Positions 1-13,299 of a DNA stretch of 13,299 bases are shown piece by piece. This stretch comes from a virus. Taxonomy: Duplodnaviria > Heunggongvirae > Uroviricota > Caudoviricetes. The stretch is taken from the IMG/VR virus record IMGVR_UViG_2537561716_000006; one strand, given 5' to 3'. A model generated the notes under the pieces. The model did not search any database. It was not told the origin of the DNA and saw only the letters and a program-made list of their open reading frames with translations. Each line of letters begins with the position of its first letter. Positions within the stretch are counted from its first letter, which is position 1. The position numbers and the translations under genes are program-made.

Positions 1-1
1 A

Positions 2-3627
<3,626 letters not shown>

Positions 3628-3647
<20 letters not shown>

Positions 3648-4947
3648 TCTCCCGCATATTGCCAGCATGGCTTTTAATGAGCCGCTGATGCTTGAACCCG
3701 CCTATGCGCGGGTTTTCTTTTGTGCGCTTGCAGGCCAGCTTGGGATCAGCCGCCTGACGGATGCAGTATCCGGCGACAGCCTGACTGCCGGAGAGGCACC
3801 CGCGGCGCTGGCGTTATCCGGTGATGATGACGGACCACGACAGGCCCGGAGTTATCAGGTCATGAACGGCATCGCCGTGCTGCCGGTGTCCGGTACGCTG
3901 GTCAGCCGGACGCGGGCGCTGCAGCCGTATTCGGGAATGACCGGTTACAACGGCATTATCGCCCGTCTGCAACAGGCTGCCAGCGATCCGATGGTGGACG
4001 GCATTCTGCTCGATATGGACACACCGGGCGGGATGGTGGCGGGAGCATTTGACTGTGCTGACATCATCGCCCGTGTGCGAGACATAAAACCGGTATGGGC
4101 GCTGGCCAACGACATGAACTGCAGTGCAGGTCAGCTGCTTGCCAGCGCCGCCTCCCGGCGTCTGGTCACGCAGACCGCCCGGACAGGCTCCATCGGCGTC
4201 ATGATGGCTCACAGTAATTACGGTGCTGCCCTGGAGAAACAGGGCGTGGAAATCACGCTGATTTACAGCGGCAGCCATAAGGTGGATGGCAACCCCTACA
4301 GCCATCTACCGGGTGATGTCCGGGAAACACTGCAGTCCCGGATGGATGCAACCCGCCGGATGTTTGCGCAGAAGGTGTCGGCATATACCGGCCTGTCCGT
4401 GCAGGCTGTGCTGGATACCGAGGCTGCAGTGTACAGCGGTCAGGAGGCCATTGATGCCGGACTGGCTGATGAACTTGTCAACAGCACCGATGCGATCACC
4501 GTTATGCGTGATGCACTGGATGCACGTAAATCCCGTCTCTCAGGAGGGCGAATGACCAAAGAGACTCAATCAACAACTGTTTCAGCCACTGCTTCGCAGG
4601 CTGACGTTACTGGCGTGGTGCCAGCGACGGAGGGCGAAAACGCCAGCGCGGCGCAGCCGGACGTGAACGCGCAGATCACCGCTGCGGTTGCGGCAGAAAA
4701 CAGCCGCATTATGGGGATCCTCAACTGTGAGGAGGCTCACGGACGCGAAGAACAGGCCCGCGTGCTGGCAGAAACCCCCGGTATGACCGTGGAAACGGCC
4801 CGCCGCATTCTGGCCGCAGCACCACAGAGTGCACAGGCGCGCAGTGATACTGCGCTGGATCGTCTGATGCAGGGGGCACCGGCACCGCTGGCTGCAGGTA
4901 ACCCGGCATCTGATGCCGTTAACGATTTGCTGAACACACCAGTGTAA
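3628..4947 (+). CDS. C: Prohead protease / minor capsid protein gpC (439 aa), GTG start
   Basis: GTG at 3628 is preceded by a GAGGAGGAG Shine-Dalgarno inside the 3' end of B, giving a 20-nt B/C overlap as in lambda. The product VTAELRNLPHIASMAFNEPLMLEPAYARVFF... is 439 aa, equal to lambda gpC. The ORF-track start at 3493 is an upstream over-extension through B. Confidence 0.9.
4342..4947 (+). CDS. Nu3: Scaffolding protein gpNu3 (201 aa), in-frame internal start within C
   Basis: ATG at 4342 is in the C frame and begins MDATRRMFAQKVSAYTGLSVQ..., sharing the C stop. It sits 714 nt after the C start, exactly as for lambda Nu3 relative to C (recalled annotation). Confidence 0.8.
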   Translation: MDATRRMFAQKVSAYTGLSVQAVLDTEAAVYSGQEAIDAGLADELVNSTDAITVMRDALDARKSRLSGGRMTKETQSTTVSATASQADVTGVVPATEGENASAAQPDVNAQITAAVAAENSRIMGILNCEEAHGREEQARVLAETPGMTVETARRILAAAPQSAQARSDTALDRLMQGAPAPLAAGNPASDAVNDLLNTPV

Positions 4948-4956
4948 GGGATGTTT

Positions 4957-5289
4957 ATGACGAGCAAAGAAACCTTTACCCATTACCAGCCGCTGGGCAA
5001 CAGTGACCCGGCTCATACCGCAACCGCGCCCGGCGGATTGAGTGCGAAAGCGCCTGCAATGACCCCGCTGATGCTGGACACCTCCAGCCGTAAGCTGGTT
5101 GCGTGGGATGGCACCACCGACGGTGCTGCCGTTGGCATTCTTGCGGTTGCTGCTGACCAGACCAGCACCACGCTGACGTTCTACAAGTCCGGCACGTTCC
5201 GTTATGAGGATGTGCTCTGGCCGGAGGCTGCCAGCGACGAGACGAAAAAACGGACCGCGTTTGCCGGAACGGCAATCAGCATCGTTTAA
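4957..5289 (+). CDS. D: Capsid decoration protein gpD (110 aa)
   Basis: [52 protein letters not shown]... matches lambda gpD. The start ATG at 4957 is 10 nt after the C stop with TAAGGG upstream; the ORF-track start at 4951 adds two spurious residues. Confidence 0.93.
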
Positions 5290-5306
5290 CCTGACCCTTC
5301 ATCACT

Positions 5307-5331
5307 AAAGGCCGCCTGTGCGGCTTTTTTT
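5307..5331 (+). terminator. Terminator-like hairpin in the D-E intergenic region (AAAGGCCGC ctgt GCGGCTTT followed by T-run)
   Basis: Read directly: 5307-5315 AAAGGCCGC is perfectly complementary to 5320-5328 GCGGCTTTT(first 9), with a 4-nt loop CTGT and a T7 tract at 5325-5331. A second T-run at 5338-5344 abuts the E start codon. Confidence 0.55.
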
Positions 5332-5344
5332 ACGGGATTTTTTT

Positions 5345-6370
5345 ATGTCGATGTACACAACCGCCCAACTGCTGGCGGCAAATGAGCAGAAATTTAAGTT
5401 TGATCCGCTGTTTCTGCGTCTCTTTTTCCGTGAGAGCTATCCCTTCACCACGGAGAAAGTCTATCTCTCACAAATTCCGGGACTGGTAAACATGGCGCTG
5501 TACGTTTCGCCGATTGTTTCTGGTGAGGTTATCCGTTCCCGTGGCGGCTCCACCTCTGAATTTACGCCGGGATATGTCAAGCCGAAGCATGAAGTGAATC
5601 CGCAGATGACCCTGCGTCGCCTGCCGGATGAAGATCCGCAGAATCTGGCGGACCCGGCTTACCGCCGCCGTCGCATCATCATGCAGAACATGCGTGACGA
5701 AGAGCTGGCCATTGCTCAGGTCGAAGAGATGCAGGCAGTTTCTGCCGTGCTCAAGGGCAAATACACCATGACCGGTGAAGCCTTCGATCCGGTTGAGGTG
5801 GATATGGGCCGCAGTGCGGCGAACAACATCACGCAGTCCGGCGGCACGGAGTGGAGCAAGCGTGACAAGTCCACGTATGACCCGACCGACGATATCGAAG
5901 CCTACGCGCTGAACGCCAGCGGCGTGGTGAATATCATCGTGTTTGACCCGAAAGGCTGGGCGCTGTTCCGTTCCTTCAAAGCCGTCAGGGAGAAGCTGGA
6001 TACCCGTCGCGGCTCTCATTCCGAACTGGAGACAGCGGTAAAAGACCTGGGCAAAGCGGTGTCTTATAAGGGAATGTATGGCGATGTGGCCATCGTCGTG
6101 TATTCCGGACAGTACGTGGAAAACGGCGTCAAAAAGAACTTCCTGCCGGACAACACGATGGTGCTGGGGAACACTCAGGCACGCGGTCTGCGTACCTATG
6201 GCTGCATTCAGGATGCGGACGCACAGCGCGAAGGCATTAACGCCTCTGCCCGTTACCCGAAAAACTGGGTGACCACCGGCGATCCGGCGCGTGAGTTCAC
6301 CATGATTCAGTCAGCACCGCTGATGCTGCTGGCTGACCCTGATGAGTTCGTGTCCGTACAACTGGCGTAA
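5345..6370 (+). CDS. E: Major capsid protein gpE (341 aa)
   Basis: MSMYTTAQLLAANEQKFKFDPLFLRLFFRESYPFTTEKVYLSQIPGLVNMALYVSPIVSGE... matches lambda gpE at 341 aa. The ORF-track start at 5318 lies inside the upstream hairpin and T-run and is rejected. Confidence 0.95.
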   Translation: MSMYTTAQLLAANEQKFKFDPLFLRLFFRESYPFTTEKVYLSQIPGLVNMALYVSPIVSGEVIRSRGGSTSEFTPGYVKPKHEVNPQMTLRRLPDEDPQNLADPAYRRRRIIMQNMRDEELAIAQVEEMQAVSAVLKGKYTMTGEAFDPVEVDMGRSAANNITQSGGTEWSKRDKSTYDPTDDIEAYALNASGVVNIIVFDPKGWALFRSFKAVREKLDTRRGSHSELETAVKDLGKAVSYKGMYGDVAIVVYSGQYVENGVKKNFLPDNTMVLGNTQARGLRTYGCIQDADAQREGINASARYPKNWVTTGDPAREFTMIQSAPLMLLADPDEFVSVQLA

Positions 6371-6372
6371 TC

Positions 6373-6397
6373 ATGGCCCTTCGGGGCCATTGTTTTT
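6373..6397 (+). terminator. Terminator-like hairpin immediately downstream of E (ATGGCCC ttcg GGGCCAT + TGTTTTT)
   Basis: Read directly: 6373-6379 ATGGCCC pairs with 6384-6390 GGGCCAT around a TTCG tetraloop, followed by TGTTTTTCTG. It is followed by the FI Shine-Dalgarno GGAGGAG (6402-6408). Confidence 0.55.
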
Positions 6398-6411
6398 CTG
6401 TGGAGGAGTCC

Positions 6412-6810
6412 ATGACGAAAGATGAACTGATTGCCCGTCTCCGCTCGCTGGGTGAACAACTGAACCGTGATGTCAGCCTGACGGGGACGAAAGAAGAACT
6501 GGCGCTCCGTGTGGCAGAGCTGGAAGAGGAGCTTGATGACACGGATGAAACTGCCGGTCAGGACACCCCTCTCAGCCGGGAAAATGTGCTGACCGGACAT
6601 GAAAATGAGGTGGGATCAGCGCAGCCGGATACCGTGATTCTGGATACGTCTGAACTGGTCACGGTCGTGGCACTGGTGAAGCTGCATACTGATGCACTTC
6701 ACGTCACGCGGGATGAACCTGTGGCATTTGTGCTGCCGGGAACGGCGTTTCGTGTCTCTGCCGGTGTGGCAGCCGAAATGACAGAGCGCGGCCTGGCCAG
6801 AATGCAATAA
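6412..6810 (+). CDS. FI: DNA packaging / head assembly accessory protein gpFI (132 aa)
   Basis: MTKDELIARLRSLGEQLNRDVSLTGTKEELALRVAELEEELDDTDETAGQDTPLS... matches lambda gpFI. A GGAGGAG Shine-Dalgarno sits 4 nt upstream of ATG 6412; the ORF-track start at 6373 lies in the hairpin and is rejected. Confidence 0.92.
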   Translation: MTKDELIARLRSLGEQLNRDVSLTGTKEELALRVAELEEELDDTDETAGQDTPLSRENVLTGHENEVGSAQPDTVILDTSELVTVVALVKLHTDALHVTRDEPVAFVLPGTAFRVSAGVAAEMTERGLARMQ

Positions 6811-6821
6811 CGGGAGGCGCT

Positions 6822-7175
6822 GTGGCTGATTTCGATAACCTGTTCGATGCTGCCATTGCCCGCGCCGATGAAACGATACGCGGGTACATGGGAACGTCAG
6901 CCACCATGACATCCGGTGAGCAGTCCGGCGCAGTAATACGTGGTGTTTTTGATGACCCTGAAAATATCAGCTATGCCGGACAGGGCGTGCGTGTTGAAGG
7001 CTCCAGCCCGTCCCTGTTTGTCCGGACTGATGATGTGCGGCAACTGCGGCGTGGAGACACGCTGACCATCGGTGAGGAAAACTTCTGGATAGACCGGATT
7101 TCGACGGATGATGGCGGAAGCTGTCATCTCTGGCTTGGGCGGGGCGTACCGCCTGCCGTTAACCGTCGTCGCTGA
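6822..7175 (+). CDS. FII: Head-tail connector / head completion protein gpFII (117 aa), GTG start
   Basis: GTG at 6822 is preceded by GGGAGG. The product (M)ADFDNLFDAAIARADETIRGYMGTSAT...HLWLGRGVPPAVNRRR is 117 aa, as in lambda gpFII. Confidence 0.92.
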   Translation: MADFDNLFDAAIARADETIRGYMGTSATMTSGEQSGAVIRGVFDDPENISYAGQGVRVEGSSPSLFVRTDDVRQLRRGDTLTIGEENFWIDRISTDDGGSCHLWLGRGVPPAVNRRR

Positions 7176-7186
7176 AGGGGGGATGT

Positions 7187-7765
7187 ATGGCCATAAAAGG
7201 TCTTGAGCAGGCCGTTGAAAACCTCAGTCGTATCAGCAAAACGGCGGTGCCTGGTGCGTCAGCAATGGCCATTAACCGCGTTGCTTCATCCGCGATATCG
7301 CAGTCGGCGTCACAGGTTGCCCGTGAGACAAGAGTACGCCGGAAACTGGTAAAGGAAAGGGCCAGGCTGAAAAGGGCCACGGTTAAAAATCCGCAGGCCA
7401 GAATCAAGGTTAACCGGGGGGATTTGCCCGTAATCAAGCTGGGTAACGCGCGGGTTGTCCTGTCCCGACGCAGGCGTCGTAAAAAGGGGCAGCGTTCATC
7501 CCTGAAAGGTGGCGGCAGCGTGCTTGTGGTGGGAAACCGTCGTATTCCCGGCGCGTTTATTCAGCAACTGAAAAATGGCCGGTGGCATGTCATGCAGCGT
7601 GTGGCCGGGAAAAACCGTTACCCCATTGATGTGGTGAAAATCCCGATGGCGGTGCCGCTGACCACGGCGTTTAAACAGAATATTGAGCGGATACGGCGTG
7701 AACGTCTTCCGAAAGAGCTGGGCTATGCGCTGCAGCATCAACTGAGAATGGTAATAAAGCGATGA
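7187..7765 (+). CDS. Z: Tail completion protein gpZ (192 aa)
   Basis: MAIKGLEQAVENLSRISKTAVPGASAMAINRVASSAISQSASQVARETRVRRKL... matches lambda gpZ at 192 aa. A G-rich Shine-Dalgarno (AGGGGGGA) lies upstream. Confidence 0.93.
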   Translation: MAIKGLEQAVENLSRISKTAVPGASAMAINRVASSAISQSASQVARETRVRRKLVKERARLKRATVKNPQARIKVNRGDLPVIKLGNARVVLSRRRRRKKGQRSSLKGGGSVLVVGNRRIPGAFIQQLKNGRWHVMQRVAGKNRYPIDVVKIPMAVPLTTAFKQNIERIRRERLPKELGYALQHQLRMVIKR

Positions 7766-8157
7766 AACATACTGAACTCCGTGCAGCCGTACTGGATGCA
7801 CTGGAGAAGCATGACACCGGGGCGACGTTTTTTGATGGTCGCCCCGCTGTTTTTGATGAGGCGGATTTTCCGGCAGTTGCCGTTTATCTCACCGGCGCTG
7901 AATACACGGGCGAAGAGCTGGACAGCGATACCTGGCAGGCGGAGCTGCATATCGAAGTTTTCCTGCCTGCTCAGGTGCCGGATTCAGAGCTGGATGCGTG
8001 GATGGAGTCCCGGATTTATCCGGTGATGAGCGATATCCCGGCACTATCAGATTTGATCACCAGTATGGTGGCCAGTGGCTATGACTACCGGCGCGACGAT
8101 GATGCGGGCCTGTGGAGTTCAGCCGATCTGACTTATGTCATTACCTATGAAATGTGA
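7762..8157 (+). CDS. U: Tail terminator protein gpU (131 aa)
   Basis: [67 protein letters not shown]... matches lambda gpU at 131 aa. The start overlaps the Z stop as ATGA. Confidence 0.94.
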
Positions 8158-8164
8158 GGACGAT

Positions 8165-8905
8165 ATGCCAACACCAAATCCTCTGGCACCGGTGAAAGGG
8201 GCCGGGACCACACTGTGGGTTTATAACGGGAACGGCGACCCATATGCAAACCCGCTTTCAGACAATGACTGGTCGCGTCTGGCAAAGGTTAAAGACCTGA
8301 CGCCCGGCGAACTGACCGCTGAGTCCTATGACGACAGTTATCTCGATGATGAAGATGCGGACTGGGCCGCGACCGGACAGGGGCAGAAATCCGCTGGAGA
8401 TACCAGCTTCACGCTGGCGTGGATGCCCGGAGAGCAGGGGCAGCAGGCGCTGCTGGCGTGGTTTAATGAAGGTGATACCCGTGCCTATAAAATCCGCTTC
8501 CCGAACGGCACGGTCGATGTGTTCCGCGGCTGGGTCAGCAGTATCGGTAAGGCGGTGACGGCGAAGGAAGTGATCACCCGCACGGTGAAAGTCACCAACG
8601 TGGGACGTCCGTCGATGGCAGAAGATCGCAGCACGGTAACAGCGGCAACCGGCATGACCGTGACGCCTGCCAGCACCTCGGTGGTGAAAGGGCAGAGCAC
8701 GACGCTGACCGTGGCATTCCAGCCGGAAGGCGCAACCGACAAGAGCTTCCGTGCGGTGTCTGCGGATAAAACAAAAGCCACCGTGTCGGTCAGTGGTATG
8801 ACCATCACCGTGAAAGGTGTTGCTGCAGGCAAGGTCAACATTCCGGTCGTATCCGGTAATGGTGAGTTTGCTGCGGTTGCAGAAATCAACGTCACCGCCA
8901 GTTAA
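8165..8905 (+). CDS. V: Major tail tube protein gpV (246 aa) with C-terminal Ig-like domain
   Basis: ATG at 8165 is preceded by GAGGA. The product [57 protein letters not shown]... is 246 aa, equal to lambda gpV. The ORF-track start at 8135 overlaps the U 3' end and is rejected. Confidence 0.93.
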
Positions 8906-8920
8906 TCCGGAGAATCAGCG

Positions 8921-9343
8921 ATGTTCCTGAAAACCGAATCATTTGAACATAACGGCGTGACCGTCACGCTTTCTGAACTGTCAGCCCTGCAGCGTATTGA
9001 GCATCTCGCCCTGATGAAACGGCAGGCAGAACAGGCGGAGTCAGACAGCAACCGGAAGTTTACTGTGGAAGACGCCATCAGAACCGGCGCTTTTGTGGTG
9101 GCGATGTCCCTGTGGCATAACCATCCGAAGAAGACGCAGATGCCGTCCATGAATGAAGCCGTTAAACAGATTGAGCAGGAAGTGCTTACCACCTGGCCCG
9201 CGGAGGCAATTTCTCATGCTGAAAACGTGGTGTACCGGCTGTCCGGTATGTATGAGTTTGTGGTGAATGATGCCCCTGAACAGGCAGAGGACGCCGGGCC
9301 TGCAGAGCCTGTTTCTGCGGGAAAGTGTTCGACGGTGAGCTGA
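8921..9343 (+). CDS. G: Tail assembly chaperone gpG (140 aa)
   Basis: MFLKTESFEHNGVTVTLSELSALQRIEHLALMKRQAEQAESDSNRKFTVEDAIRTGAF... ends ...PVSAGKCSTVS. It matches lambda gpG in length and sequence. Confidence 0.93.
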   Translation: MFLKTESFEHNGVTVTLSELSALQRIEHLALMKRQAEQAESDSNRKFTVEDAIRTGAFVVAMSLWHNHPKKTQMPSMNEAVKQIEQEVLTTWPAEAISHAENVVYRLSGMYEFVVNDAPEQAEDAGPAEPVSAGKCSTVS

Positions 9344-9759
9344 GTTTTGCCCTGAAACTGGCGCGCGAGATGGGGCGACCCGACTGGCGTGCCATGCTTG
9401 CCGGGATGTCATCCACGGAGTATGCCGACTGGCACCGCTTTTACAGTACCCATTATTTTCATGATGTTCTGCTGGATATGCACTTTTCCGGGCTGACGTA
9501 CACCGTGCTCAGCCTGTTTTTCAGCGATCCGGATATGCATCCGCTGGATTTCAGTCTGCTGAACCGGCGTGAGGCTGACGAAGAGCCTGAAGATGATGTG
9601 CTGATGCAGAAAGCGGCAGGGCTTGCTGGAGGCGTTCGTTTTGGCCCGGACGGGAATGAAGTTATCCCCGCTTCCCCGGATGTGGCGGACATGACGGAGG
9701 ATGACGTAATGCTGATGACAGTATCAGAAGGGATCGCAGGAGGAGTCCGGTATGGCTGA
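8921..9759 (+). CDS. T: Tail assembly chaperone fusion gpG-T produced by programmed -1 ribosomal frameshift near 9319-9325
   Basis: The T frame (-1 relative to G) is open from 9325 to TGA 9757-9759, encoding ...FDGELSFALKLAREMGRPDWRAMLAGMSSTEYADWHRFYSTHYFHDVLL... It has no Shine-Dalgarno of its own and overlaps the G 3' end by 19 nt. The slippery heptamer G GGA AAG is in the G frame at 9319-9325. The G-T frameshift is the established mechanism in lambda. Confidence 0.85.
9319..9325 (+). promoter_or_regulatory. -1 programmed frameshift slippery heptamer G_GGA_AAG (G frame)
   Basis: Read directly: gcGGGAAAGtg, with codons GGA (9320-9322) and AAG (9323-9325) in the G frame. A slip to GGG AAA puts the ribosome in the T frame. 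Confidence 0.85.
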
Positions 9760-12301
9760 ACCGGTAGGCGATCTGGTCGTTGATTTAAGTCTGGATGCGG
9801 CCAGATTTGACGAGCAGATGGCCAGAGTCAGGCGTCATTTTTCCGGTACGGAAAGTGATGCGAAAAAAACAGCGGCAGTCGTTGAACAGTCGATGAGCCG
9901 GCAGGCGCTGGCTGCACAGAAAGCGGGAATTTCCGTCGGGCAGTATAAAGCCGCCATGCGTATGCTGCCTGCGCAGTTCACTGACGTGGCCACGCAGCTT
10001 GCAGGTGGGCAAAGTCCGTGGCTGATCCTGCTGCAACAGGGGGGGCAGGTGAAGGACTCCTTCGGCGGGATGATCCCCATGTTCAGGGGGCTTGCCGGTG
10101 CGATCACCCTGCCGATGGTGGGGGCCACCTCGCTGGCGGTGGCGACCGGTGCGCTGGCGTATGCCTGGTATCAGGGCAACTCAACCCTGTCCGATTTCAA
10201 CAAAACGCTGGTCCTTTCCGGCAATCAGGCCGGGCTGACGGCAGATCGTATGCTGGTCCTGTCCAGAGCCGGGCAGGCGGCAGGGCTGACGTTTAACCAG
10301 ACCAGCGAGTCACTCAGCGCACTGGTTAAGGCGGGGGTAAGCGGTGAGGCTCAGATTGCGTCCATCAGCCAGAGTGTGGCGCGTTTCTCCTCTGCATCAG
10401 GCGTGGAGGTGGACAAGGTCGCTGAAGCCTTCGGGAAGCTGACCACTGACCCGACGTCGGGGCTGACAGCGATGGCGCGCCAGTTCCATAACGTGACGGC
10501 GGAGCAGATTGCGTATGTTGCTCAGTTGCAGCGTTCCGGCGAAGAAGCCGGGGCATTGCAGGCGGCGAACGAGGCCGCGACGAAAGGGTTTGATGACCAG
10601 ACCCGCCGCCTGAAAGAGAACATGGGCACGCTGGAAACCTGGGCAGACAGGACAGCACGGGCATTCAAATCCATGTGGGATGCGGTGCTGGATATTGGTC
10701 GTCCTGATACCGCGCAGGAGATGCTGATTAAGGCAGAGGCCGCGTTTAAGAAAGCGGACGATATCTGGAATCTGCGCAAGGATGATTATTTTGTTAACGA
10801 TGAAGCGCGGGCGCGTTACTGGGATGATCGTGAAAAGGCCCGTCTTGCGCTTGAAGCCGCCCGAAAGAAGGCTGAGCAGCAGAGTCAACAGGACAAAAAT
10901 GCGCAGCAACAGAGCGATACCGAAGCGTCACGGCTGAAATATACCGAAGAGGCGCAGAAGGCTTACGAACGCCTGCAGACGCCGCTGGAGAAATATACCG
11001 CCCGTCAGGAAGAACTGAATAAGGCACTGAAAGACGGGAAAATCCTGCAGGCAGATTACAACACGCTGATGGCGGCGGCGAAAAAGGACTATGAAGCGAC
11101 GCTGAAAAAGCCGAAACAGTCCGGCGTGAAGGTGTCTGCGGGCGATCGTCAGGAAGACAGTGCTCATGCTGCCCTGCTGACGCTTCAGGCAGAACTCCGG
11201 ATGCTGGAGAAGCATGCCGGAGCGAATGAGAAAATCAGCCAGCAGCGCCGGGATTTGTGGAAGGCAGAAAGTCAGTTCGCGGTACTGGAGGAGGCGGCAC
11301 AACGTCGCCAGCTGTCCGCACAGGAGAAATCCCTGCTGGCGCATAAAGACGAGACGCTGGAGTACAAACGCCAGCTGGCTGTACTTGGCGACAAGGTCAC
11401 CTATCAGGAGCACCTGAACGCGCTGGCACAGCAGGCGGATAAATTCGCACAGCAACAACGGGCAAAACGGGCCGCCATTGATGCAAAAAACCGGGGGCTG
11501 ACTGACCGGCAGGCAGCGCGGGAAGCCACGGAACAGCGCCTGAAGGAACAGTATGGCGATAATCCTCTGGCGCTGAATAACGTCATGTCAGAGCAGAAAA
11601 AGACCTGGGCAGCTGAAGACCAGCTTCGCGGGAGCTGGATGGCAGGCCTCAGGTCAGGCTGGAGTGAGTGGGAAGAGAGCGCCACGGACAGTATGTCGCA
11701 GGTTAAAAGTGCTGCCACGCAGACCTTTGATGGTATTGCACAGAATATGGCGGCGATGCTGACCGGCAGTGAACAGAACTGGCGCAGCTTCACCCGTTCC
11801 GTGCTGTCCATGATGACAGAAATTCTGCTTAAGCAGGCAATGGTGGGGATTGTCGGAAGTATAGGCAGCGCCATTGGCGGCGGCGCATCAGCGTCAGGCG
11901 GTACAGCCATTCAGGCAGCTGCGGCGAAATTCCATTTTGCGGCCGGAGGGTTTACGGGAACCGGCGGCAAATATGAGCCAGCGGGGATTGTTCACCGTGG
12001 TGAATTTGTCTTCACGAAGGAGGCAACCAGCCGGATTGGCGTAGGAAATCTTTACCGGCTGATGCGCGGCTATGCCACCGGCGGTTATGTCGGTACACCG
12101 GGCAGCATGGCGGACAGCCGGTCGCAGGCGTCCGGGACGTTTGAGCAGAATAACCATGTGGTGATTAACAACGACGGCACGAACGGTCAGATAGGGCCAC
12201 AGGCACTGAAGGCGGTTTATGACGTAGCCCGTAAGGCGGCAATGGATGTTGTGACCGGGCAGATGCGCGATGGTGGTCTGTTCTCCGGAGGTGGACGATG
12301 A
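9752..12301 (+). CDS. H: Tail tape measure protein gpH (849 aa)
   Basis: ATG 9752 is preceded by GGAGGAG and overlaps the T stop. The product MAEPVGDLVVDLSLDAARFDEQMARVRRHFSGTESDAKKTAAVVEQ... ends ...MRDGGLFSGGGR and matches lambda gpH. It is long, coiled-coil and Q/A/K/E-rich centrally, with a Gly-rich hydrophobic segment near the C-terminus. It is 849 aa versus 853 aa recalled for lambda. Confidence 0.93.
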   Translation: MAEPVGDLVVDLSLDAARFDEQMARVRRHFSGTESDAKKTAAVVEQSMSRQALAAQKAGISVGQYKAAMRMLPAQFTDVATQLAGGQSPWLILLQQGGQVKDSFGGMIPMFRGLAGAITLPMVGATSLAVATGALAYAWYQGNSTLSDFNKTLVLSGNQAGLTADRMLVLSRAGQAAGLTFNQTSESLSALVKAGVSGEAQIASISQSVARFSSASGVEVDKVAEAFGKLTTDPTSGLTAMARQFHNVTAEQIAYVAQLQRSGEEAGALQAANEAATKGFDDQTRRLKENMGTLETWADRTARAFKSMWDAVLDIGRPDTAQEMLIKAEAAFKKADDIWNLRKDDYFVNDEARARYWDDREKARLALEAARKKAEQQSQQDKNAQQQSDTEASRLKYTEEAQKAYERLQTPLEKYTARQEELNKALKDGKILQADYNTLMAAAKKDYEATLKKPKQSGVKVSAGDRQEDSAHAALLTLQAELRMLEKHAGANEKISQQRRDLWKAESQFAVLEEAAQRRQLSAQEKSLLAHKDETLEYKRQLAVLGDKVTYQEHLNALAQQADKFAQQQRAKRAAIDAKNRGLTDRQAAREATEQRLKEQYGDNPLALNNVMSEQKKTWAAEDQLRGSWMAGLRSGWSEWEESATDSMSQVKSAATQTFDGIAQNMAAMLTGSEQNWRSFTRSVLSMMTEILLKQAMVGIVGSIGSAIGGGASASGGTAIQAAAAKFHFAAGGFTGTGGKYEPAGIVHRGEFVFTKEATSRIGVGNLYRLMRGYATGGYVGTPGSMADSRSQASGTFEQNNHVVINNDGTNGQIGPQALKAVYDVARKAAMDVVTGQMRDGGLFSGGGR

Positions 12302-12627
12302 AAACCTTCCGCTGGAAAGTGAAACCCGGTATGGATGTGGCTTCGGCCCCTTCCGTAAGAAAGGTGCGCTTTGGTGATGGCTATTCCCAGCGAGCGCCTG
12401 CCGGGCTGAATGCCGACCTGAAAACGTACAGCGTGACGCTTTCTGTTCCCCGTTGGGAGGCCACGGCGCTTGAGTCGTTTCTGGCTGAGCACGGGGGCTG
12501 GAAGGCCTTTCTGTGGACGCCGCCTTATGAGTGGCGGCAGATAAAGGTGACCTGCGCAAAATGGTCGTCGCGGGTCAGTATGCTGCGTGTTGAGTTCAGC
12601 GCAGAGTTTGAACAGGTGGTGAACTGA
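12298..12627 (+). CDS. M: Tail tip assembly protein gpM (109 aa)
   Basis: MKTFRWKVKPGMDVASAPSVRKVRFGDGYSQRAPAGLNADLKTYSVTLSVPRWEATALESF... matches lambda gpM at 109 aa. The start overlaps the H stop as ATGA. Confidence 0.93.
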   Translation: MKTFRWKVKPGMDVASAPSVRKVRFGDGYSQRAPAGLNADLKTYSVTLSVPRWEATALESFLAEHGGWKAFLWTPPYEWRQIKVTCAKWSSRVSMLRVEFSAEFEQVVN

Positions 12628-13250
12628 TGCAGGATATCCGGCAGGAAACACTGAATGAATGCACCCGTGCGGAGCAGTCGGCCAGCGTGGTGCTCTGGGA
12701 AATCGATCTGACAGAGGTCGGTGGAGAACGTTATTTTTTCTGTAATGAGCAGAACGAAAAAGGTGAGCCGGTCACCTGGCAGGGGCGACAGTATCAGCCG
12801 TATCCCATTCAGGGGAGTGGTTTTGAACTGAATGGCAAAGGCACCAGTACGCGCCCCACGCTGACGGTTTCTAACCTGTACGGTATGGTCACCGGGATGG
12901 CGGAAGATCTGCAGAGTCTGGTCGGCGGAACGGTGGTCCGGCGTAAGGTTTACGCCCGTTTTCTGGATGCGGTGAACTTCGTCAACGGAAACAGTGACGC
13001 CGATCCGGAGCAGGAGGTGATCAGCCGCTGGCGCATTGAGCAGTGCAGCGAACTGAGCGCGGTGAGTGCCTCTTTTGTACTGTCCACGCCGACGGAAACG
13101 GACGGCGCTGTTTTTCCGGGACGTATCATGCTGGCCAACACCTGCACCTGGACCTATCGCGGCGATGAGTGCGGTTATCACGGTCCGGCGGTCGCGGATG
13201 AATATGACCAGCCAACGTCCGATATCACGAAGGATAAATGCAGCAAATGA
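12627..13250 (+). CDS. L: Tail tip protein gpL, 3'-truncated (207 aa versus about 232 aa in lambda); possibly a pseudogene
   Basis: MQDIRQETLNECTRAEQSASVVLWEIDLTEVGGERYFFCNEQNEKGEPVTWQGRQYQPYPIQGSGFELNGKG... matches lambda gpL up to ...TSDITKDKCSK. The ORF then stops at TGA 13248-13250, which is the first three bases of an apparent IS terminus. Lambda gpL continues with about 25 more residues (CLSGCKFRNN...) as I recall. Confidence 0.85.
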   Translation: MQDIRQETLNECTRAEQSASVVLWEIDLTEVGGERYFFCNEQNEKGEPVTWQGRQYQPYPIQGSGFELNGKGTSTRPTLTVSNLYGMVTGMAEDLQSLVGGTVVRRKVYARFLDAVNFVNGNSDADPEQEVISRWRIEQCSELSAVSASFVLSTPTETDGAVFPGRIMLANTCTWTYRGDECGYHGPAVADEYDQPTSDITKDKCSK

Positions 13251-13299
13251 ACCGCCCCGGAAATCCTGGAGACTAAACTCCCTGAGAAAGAGGTAAACA
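13248..13299 (+). mobile_element. Left terminal inverted repeat region of an IS3-family insertion sequence (IS629/IS1203-like), partial; continues beyond window
   Basis: The sequence TGAACCGCCCCGGAAATCCTGGAGACTAAACTCCCTGAGAAAGAGGTAAACA begins with the IS3-family terminal TG and closely matches my recollection of the IS629/IS1203 left end, where orfA (MTKNTRFSPEVRQ...) starts a few bases later. Collinearity with lambda L breaks exactly here. Recognition is from memory, not a search. Confidence 0.6.

Follow-up and report, generated by a model that had tools for sequence, protein, structure and literature searches.

We found that the tail-tip gene L of a lambdoid prophage of Escherichia coli O157:H7 is disrupted by the terminus of an insertion sequence (IS) at codon 207/208, and the analysis described below confirmed this disruption. 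The DNA analysed, referred to here as the window, is one stretch of 13,299 nt, which an exact-protein look-up identified as the entire contig AOEA01000078.1 (13,299 bp) of the draft assembly GCA_000334995.2. The disrupted gene belongs to prophage Sp8, and the inserted terminus is identical to the left end of annotated copies of IS1203, an isoform of IS629.

The late region of Sp8 and the truncated gene L

Gene calls in the window (contig locus L005) together with Pfam family assignments were used to define the late operon and the gene that follows it:

Positions 1..12626, plus strand: Sp8 late operon, from 80 nt inside the terminase large-subunit gene to M, all genes open
Positions 12627..13250, plus strand: truncated L, 207 codons followed by TGA (the intact gene has 232 codons)

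The genes of the late operon are arranged in the order terminase large subunit, W, B, C/Nu3, D, E, FI, FII, Z, U, V, G/G-T, H and M. Positions 1..13249 of the window align without gaps to Sp8 of strain Sakai (NC_002695.2, 1630821..1644069) with 15 mismatches, corresponding to 99.89% identity over 13,249 nt, and to strain H6437 (NZ_CP038339.1), also without gaps, with 12 mismatches. The Sakai alignment falls inside the feature annotated as 'prophage Sp8', which adjoins icd. A previous reading of the window, made from the sequence alone, had proposed a prophage residing in a bacterial chromosome, and the window indeed represents the collinear late region of Sp8 of E. coli O157:H7. Gene order and gene lengths are the same in Sakai Sp8, including a tape measure protein of 849 amino acids, and the Sakai orthologue of L is ECs_1645. 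The two differ at L: in Sakai Sp8 an L of 232 amino acids is followed by K, I and J, whereas L of the window comprises 207 amino acids and ends at the IS. L is intact in H6437 as well as in Sakai, with K, I, J, lom and a side tail fibre gene downstream of it.

Two further observations concern the late operon. Mismatches are concentrated in the first 1.6 kb of the window (43-1582, within the gene for the terminase large subunit), which holds 10 of the 12 mismatches to H6437 and 11 of the 15 to Sakai Sp8; the other 11.6 kb is almost identical. This patch in the terminase gene suggests either recombination or gene conversion with the terminase of a paralogous prophage, or mixing of reads between repeats in the draft assembly. 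A lambda-type -1 frameshift heptamer (G GGA AAG) is present at window 9319-9325 in the zero frame of G (8921..9343), and since the T frame is open to 9759, the frameshift that produces the tail assembly chaperone is conserved.

The open reading frame of L (12627..13250, plus strand) encodes 207 amino acids with the C-terminus ...KDKCSK and is terminated by the TGA at 13248-13250, while intact L in H6437 and Sakai Sp8 measures 699 nt and encodes 232 amino acids. The product is identical to residues 1-207 of lambda gpL (PDB 8iyk_L) at 204 of 207 positions, with the residue numbering unchanged. It matches the Phage_tail_L family (PF05100) with an E-value of 3.4e-90 and a score of 301 bits (cut-off 25), and covers positions 1-180 of the 206 profile positions, all of which (1-206) are spanned by intact Sp8 L. 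In the structure of the lambda tail tip, Cys173, Cys182, Cys205 and Cys212 surround density that was modelled as a [4Fe-4S] cluster (PMC10721106). The truncated L keeps Cys173, Cys182 and Cys205 and loses Cys208 and Cys212, which lie beyond the stop codon. Three of the four cluster ligands are thus present, and the gene is therefore a truncated derivative of the gpL gene and not a gene for complete gpL. Lambda gpL as represented in PDB entries 8iyk, 8iyl, 8k35, 8xcg and 9e7m has residues 208-232 (CLSGCKFRNNVGNFGGFLSINKLSQ), which are missing from the product of the window. No foreign residues are added to gpL(1-207), because the first codon contributed by the IS is itself a stop codon. It is a reasonable inference that gpL(1-207) would be non-functional, amounting to loss of function, and that tail-tip assembly would be compromised because 25 residues including the Fe-S ligand Cys212 are gone.

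An L product identical to these 207 amino acids was also found in JADPZC010000003.1 (L004 10612-10616), where it results from a TGC-to-TGA nonsense mutation at codon 208. This record is free of an IS at L and continues with normal L sequence and intact K, I and J. The lambdoid prophage concerned is unrelated to that of the window and is 96.5% identical to it over the aligned 6.2 kb (window 7047-13250). The nonsense allele therefore represents an independent origin of the same loss of 25 C-terminal residues of gpL.

The IS1203/IS629 terminus at the end of the window

The features at the junction between L and the IS are as follows:

Positions 13248..13299, plus strand: first 52 nt of IS1203/IS629, consisting of the left terminal inverted repeat (IRL) and the orfA leader, 100% identical to annotated IS1203 copies
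Positions 13248..13272, plus strand: IRL, beginning with 5'-TG and identical to positions 2501-2525 of the copy in PV15-279 (locus L001)
Positions 13248..13250, plus strand: stop codon TGA of L according to the open reading frame call, equal to the first three bases of the IS
Positions 13245..13247, plus strand: predicted target triplet AAA, or CAAA (13244-13247), assuming a simple insertion

In codons of L, the 3' end of the window runs from AAG GAT AAA TGC AGC AAA into the IS, which reads TGA ACC GCC CCG GAA ATC CTG GAG ACT AAA CTC CCT GAG AAA GAG GTA AAC A up to the last base. Intact L of H6437 and Sakai Sp8 reads TGC CTG AGC GGT TGT AAG... from codon 208 onwards. The junction was searched with a 400-nt query in which query position 350 corresponds to window 13249. 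In BLAST searches against E. coli genomes and phages, thousands of L genes matched this query, and the best 50 listed all end at 13249; a full-length match was found in no E. coli genome or phage record. The true boundary lies between 13247 and 13248, because the dinucleotide TG is common to codon 208 of L (TGC) and to the IS terminus (TGAACC...). Collinearity with lambda gene L, which the sequence-only reading had placed up to about 13247, hence stops at 13247-13249, and the coordinates and letters quoted there are right. The same holds for its proposal that the in-frame TGA ending L is supplied by the IS, as the reading frame stops at the first triplet of the element.

The window from 13248 to 13299 matches positions 2501-2552 of locus L001, the left end of an annotated IS1203 copy, at 52 of 52 positions. 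Among 5,426 complete E. coli genomes (28 Gb), 2,939 contain this 52-mer, at 16,601 places in total, and with an E-value of 4e-18 against 28 Gb the match is far above chance. The 52-mer occurs on chromosomes and on plasmids, beside unrelated genes, at a maximum of 50 places per genome. In PV15-279 it is located directly 5' of a CDS annotated as 'IS3-like element IS1203 family transposase, programmed frameshift'. This reference copy is 1310 bp long, starts with TGAACCGCCCCGG... and ends with ...CCGGGGCGGTTCA (last bases ...GGTTCA); the first 25 positions of its IRL and right inverted repeat (IRR) agree at 22 positions, and the copy is flanked by AAG on both sides. The orfA start codon in the reference copies begins 3 nt beyond the last base of the window, so that the contig stops 2 nt before the ATG, and the orfA product beginning MTKNTRFSPEV, which had been predicted just beyond the window, was found there in the identical reference copies. 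In copies with the identical 52-mer, orfA matches HTH_Tnp_1, orfB matches rve (DDE) and NCBIfam transpos_IS3 (317.6 bits, cut-off 160), and a programmed frameshift is annotated in the transposase. Records with an IS copy at a coverage of at least 80% number 4,484 and records with the 52-mer 4,375, indicating that, at the level of records, the 52-mer is normally part of a full-length element. The terminal 5'-TG and the complete match of the IRL to annotated IS1203 thus bear out the assignment to the IS629/IS1203 group of the IS3 family. Elements of this group occur in E. coli O157:H7 and in Shigella.

According to Rump et al. (PMC3271280), IS1203 is an IS629 isoform and one of the sub-types found in O157:H7, and 62% of the IS629 copies of O157:H7 are located in prophages or prophage-like elements. 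The visible 52 nt show no difference from known copies, with the same IRL and orfA leader and a typical location in a prophage gene. What sets this copy apart is its site, codon 207/208 of Sp8 L, at which none of the complete genomes searched carries an insertion.

It was considered whether the 52-nt tail could instead be the native sequence of a variant L allele of lambdoid phages, with no IS involved. All top listed L matches from phages and E. coli stop at 13249 and none spans the full query, while the 52-mer is the end of a multi-copy IS that recurs beside unrelated genes and directly 5' of IS1203 transposase genes. The only IS-free L found to end at codon 207 is the point mutation in JADPZC010000003.1, where normal L sequence follows. 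The probability of a native allele is therefore negligible.

Origin of the junction

The junction is probably the result of transposition of IS1203 (1310 bp) into codon 207/208 of Sp8 L in one O157:H7 strain or sub-lineage. Members of the IS3 family transpose by a copy-out-paste-in route via a circular intermediate, produce OrfAB by -1 frameshifting and duplicate 3-4 bp of target. IS1203, the most abundant IS in E. coli O157:H7, would have inserted along this route through a circle. The left end of the IS faces the 5' part of L, so that the transposase reads along the late operon, and the first IS triplet, TGA, ends L after codon 207. On the far side of a full-length IS copy, a target duplication followed by the 3' end of L and by K-I-J would be expected. 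That side would read ...GGTTCA-AAA(or CAAA)-TGCCTGAGCGG; in full, a simple insertion predicts a right junction consisting of CCCGGGGCGGTTCA and then AAATGCCTGAGCGG or CAAATGCCTGAGCGG, depending on a 3- or 4-bp duplication, and then K. The full-length IS, its IRR, the transposase and the duplication are predicted for this strain on the basis of reference copies that are 100% identical.

As the contig breaks off within the repeat, simple insertion is no more than the likely reading when set against a deletion or rearrangement next to the IS. In the latter case the junction is real and the remainder of L is not on the far side of the IS. IS629 could have landed in K, I, J or beyond, followed by an adjacent deletion back to codon 207 (e.g., dependent on IEE or transposase), or, after the insertion, the segment downstream could have been inverted or translocated by recombination with another IS629. 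In either case the 3' end of L, with or without K-I-J, would be missing or located elsewhere, and no target duplication would be present. This is a realistic alternative, because IS629 is known to duplicate 3-4 bp of its target and yet, in four O157:H7 genomes, only 21 of the 47 sites occupied by IS629 have matching 3-4 bp duplications (PMC3271280), and because the deletions documented next to IS629 in IEE-dependent excision range from a few nt to over 40 kb (PMC9943667). Potential recombination partners are also available, as an O157:H7 genome contains about 20 or more copies of IS629 (complete-genome search; also PMC3271280). Against it, the closest complete genomes have no IS629/IS1203 downstream of L in Sp8 or in its right flank, where only ISEc8 occurs, and the sole IS1203 in Sp8 of H6437 is upstream, between bor and ybcV. 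Moreover, a deletion or rearrangement requires two events and simple insertion only one. We consider such a secondary event possible, though clearly less probable than simple insertion.

The IS1203 copy between bor and ybcV in H6437 Sp8 (L003 6001-7310, NZ_CP038339.1) is located 3.65 kb upstream of the position at which the window starts and is oriented like the late operon. It is shared by many of the complete genomes closest to the window and is absent from Sakai Sp8. The copy in L may have been donated locally by this one. The copy between bor and ybcV also accounts for whole-window BLAST matches with '100% coverage', which were rejected as an artefact: in these matches the 52-nt piece is joined to the IS1203 between bor and ybcV, and L is intact.

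The exact junction between L and the IS was found in none of the 5,426 complete E. coli genomes (including Sakai, NC_002695.2), nor in phage records, JGI metagenome contigs, IMG/VR contigs or GTDB-representative contigs. Its absence from all collections searched points to an insertion that is private to a strain or lineage. A right junction, searched as the IS right end followed by 2-6 nt and TGCCTGAGCGG or as a synthetic 165-mer with AAA as the duplication, was found in none of the complete E. coli genomes, metagenome contigs or GTDB contigs.

The junction is supported by one assembly and by one contig end, the latter being possibly a coincidence. This contig, AIFL01000040.1 (assembly GCA_000249395.2), is an independent draft contig that is 99.97% identical to the window and ends exactly at window 13247, which would fit a related strain that shares this insertion. 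It was given moderate weight only, because the look-up selects 207-aa products and contigs often break here. Coincidence has to be considered because partial L products of 191-214 aa reveal frequent breaks in this zone. A comparison of single-nucleotide differences between the window and AIFL01000040.1 yielded no informative sites, all differences being private.

Contigs ending in this part of L are common. Many draft and metagenome contigs with differing L alleles end within L codons 191-214 (L006, L008-L012; P0008, P0010-P0013), and the protein cluster of L also holds partial products of 191, 205, 213 and 214 aa. Six other contigs, which carry different L alleles and three of which come from metagenomes, end at ...GCAGCAAA, ...AAAT or ...AAATG. 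Assemblies probably tend to break in codons 191-214 in general, at the point where lambdoid prophages of the same host diverge from one another. Contig ends were rejected as evidence for an IS hot spot at L codon 207, since the look-up is length-selective, the alleles differ and the cluster has products of other lengths.

These breaks also bear on the question whether a chimeric read or a mis-join in the assembly graph could have fused an IS tail to an L gene that is intact in the strain. The junction is unique to AOEA01000078.1 across everything searched, L-like genes and IS629 are both multi-copy repeats, and contigs frequently break in the same part of L, all of which would fit such an artefact. 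However, the break falls on base 1 of the IS terminus (TGAACC...), where a junction made by transposase would lie, and not at some random position within the element, and the 99.97% identical contig of a second, independent assembly ends at the same base. Because the break coincides exactly with the first IS base, an assembly chimera is very unlikely. As for the contig end itself, the assembler could not resolve the multi-copy element and therefore stopped after 52 nt of it; draft contigs normally end in this way, a few dozen bases into a multi-copy IS, when a repeat is left unresolved, and such an end is not a biological one. Relative to H6437 and Sakai, AOEA01000078.1 starts 80 nt into the terminase large-subunit gene and ends 52 nt into the IS, and both ends look like assembly breaks at repeats.

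Consequences for Sp8 and comparison with known insertions

The sequence-only reading had also raised the possibility of polar effects on the genes downstream of L. Scanning the reference IS for terminator and promoter consensus sequences gave nothing above shuffled expectation and therefore no basis for a claim of transcriptional polarity. Any polar effect on K, I and J is speculative. Polymerase modified by Q reads through terminators.

Sp8 is among only three lambdoid prophages of Sakai with a complete morphogenetic gene set (Asadulghani et al. 2009; PMC2669165), and the disruption of L removes one of these three sets. The practical consequence is minor, because cI/cro are already missing from Sp8, and no excision, circularisation, replication or packaging of it was seen in Sakai (PMC2669165). 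The insertion adds a further lesion to a prophage in decay and at most removes a potential source of tail parts in trans. A broader interpretation, in which lambdoid prophages are repeatedly targeted by IS629 or broken at codon 207/208 of L, or in which the junction marks an IS-mediated loss of K-I-J, is unlikely. If true, loss of K-I-J would leave the O157 prophage pool with one fewer of its only three complete sets of tail genes and would alter which defective prophages can be mobilised in trans.

Other lesions were observed in Sp8 of H6437 (NZ_CP038339.1). Gene O, beside xis/int, is annotated as a pseudogene that lacks its N-terminus, and the cI/cro region is missing (L014 3418-4206). Near the right end, ISEc8 interrupts a tail fibre assembly gene (L013 9410-11953). 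The O pseudogene, the missing cI/cro region and ISEc8 are further signs that Sp8 had already decayed.

The kind of event is already known, as IS disruption of O157 prophage genes has been described repeatedly (PMC3271280, PMC2669165, PMC9943667) and IS629 insertions in O157 prophages are the rule. Among the ISs of O157:H7, IS629/IS1203 is the one that has been catalogued best. Only the specific site, codon 207/208 of Sp8 L, appears to be unrecorded in the collections searched, and its importance beyond bookkeeping is little. For annotation, L in AOEA01000078.1 is better recorded as IS-disrupted than simply as 'partial', and as an IS629 site specific to a strain or lineage, the junction could serve typing in the way of IS-printing. 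Within Sp8 itself, the IS629 sites IS.8 and IS.9 represent the same kind of event at a different site (PMC3271280), and nu1 of Sakai Sp4 is likewise a lambdoid prophage gene of O157 that is disrupted by an IS, although a different gene is affected (PMC2669165).
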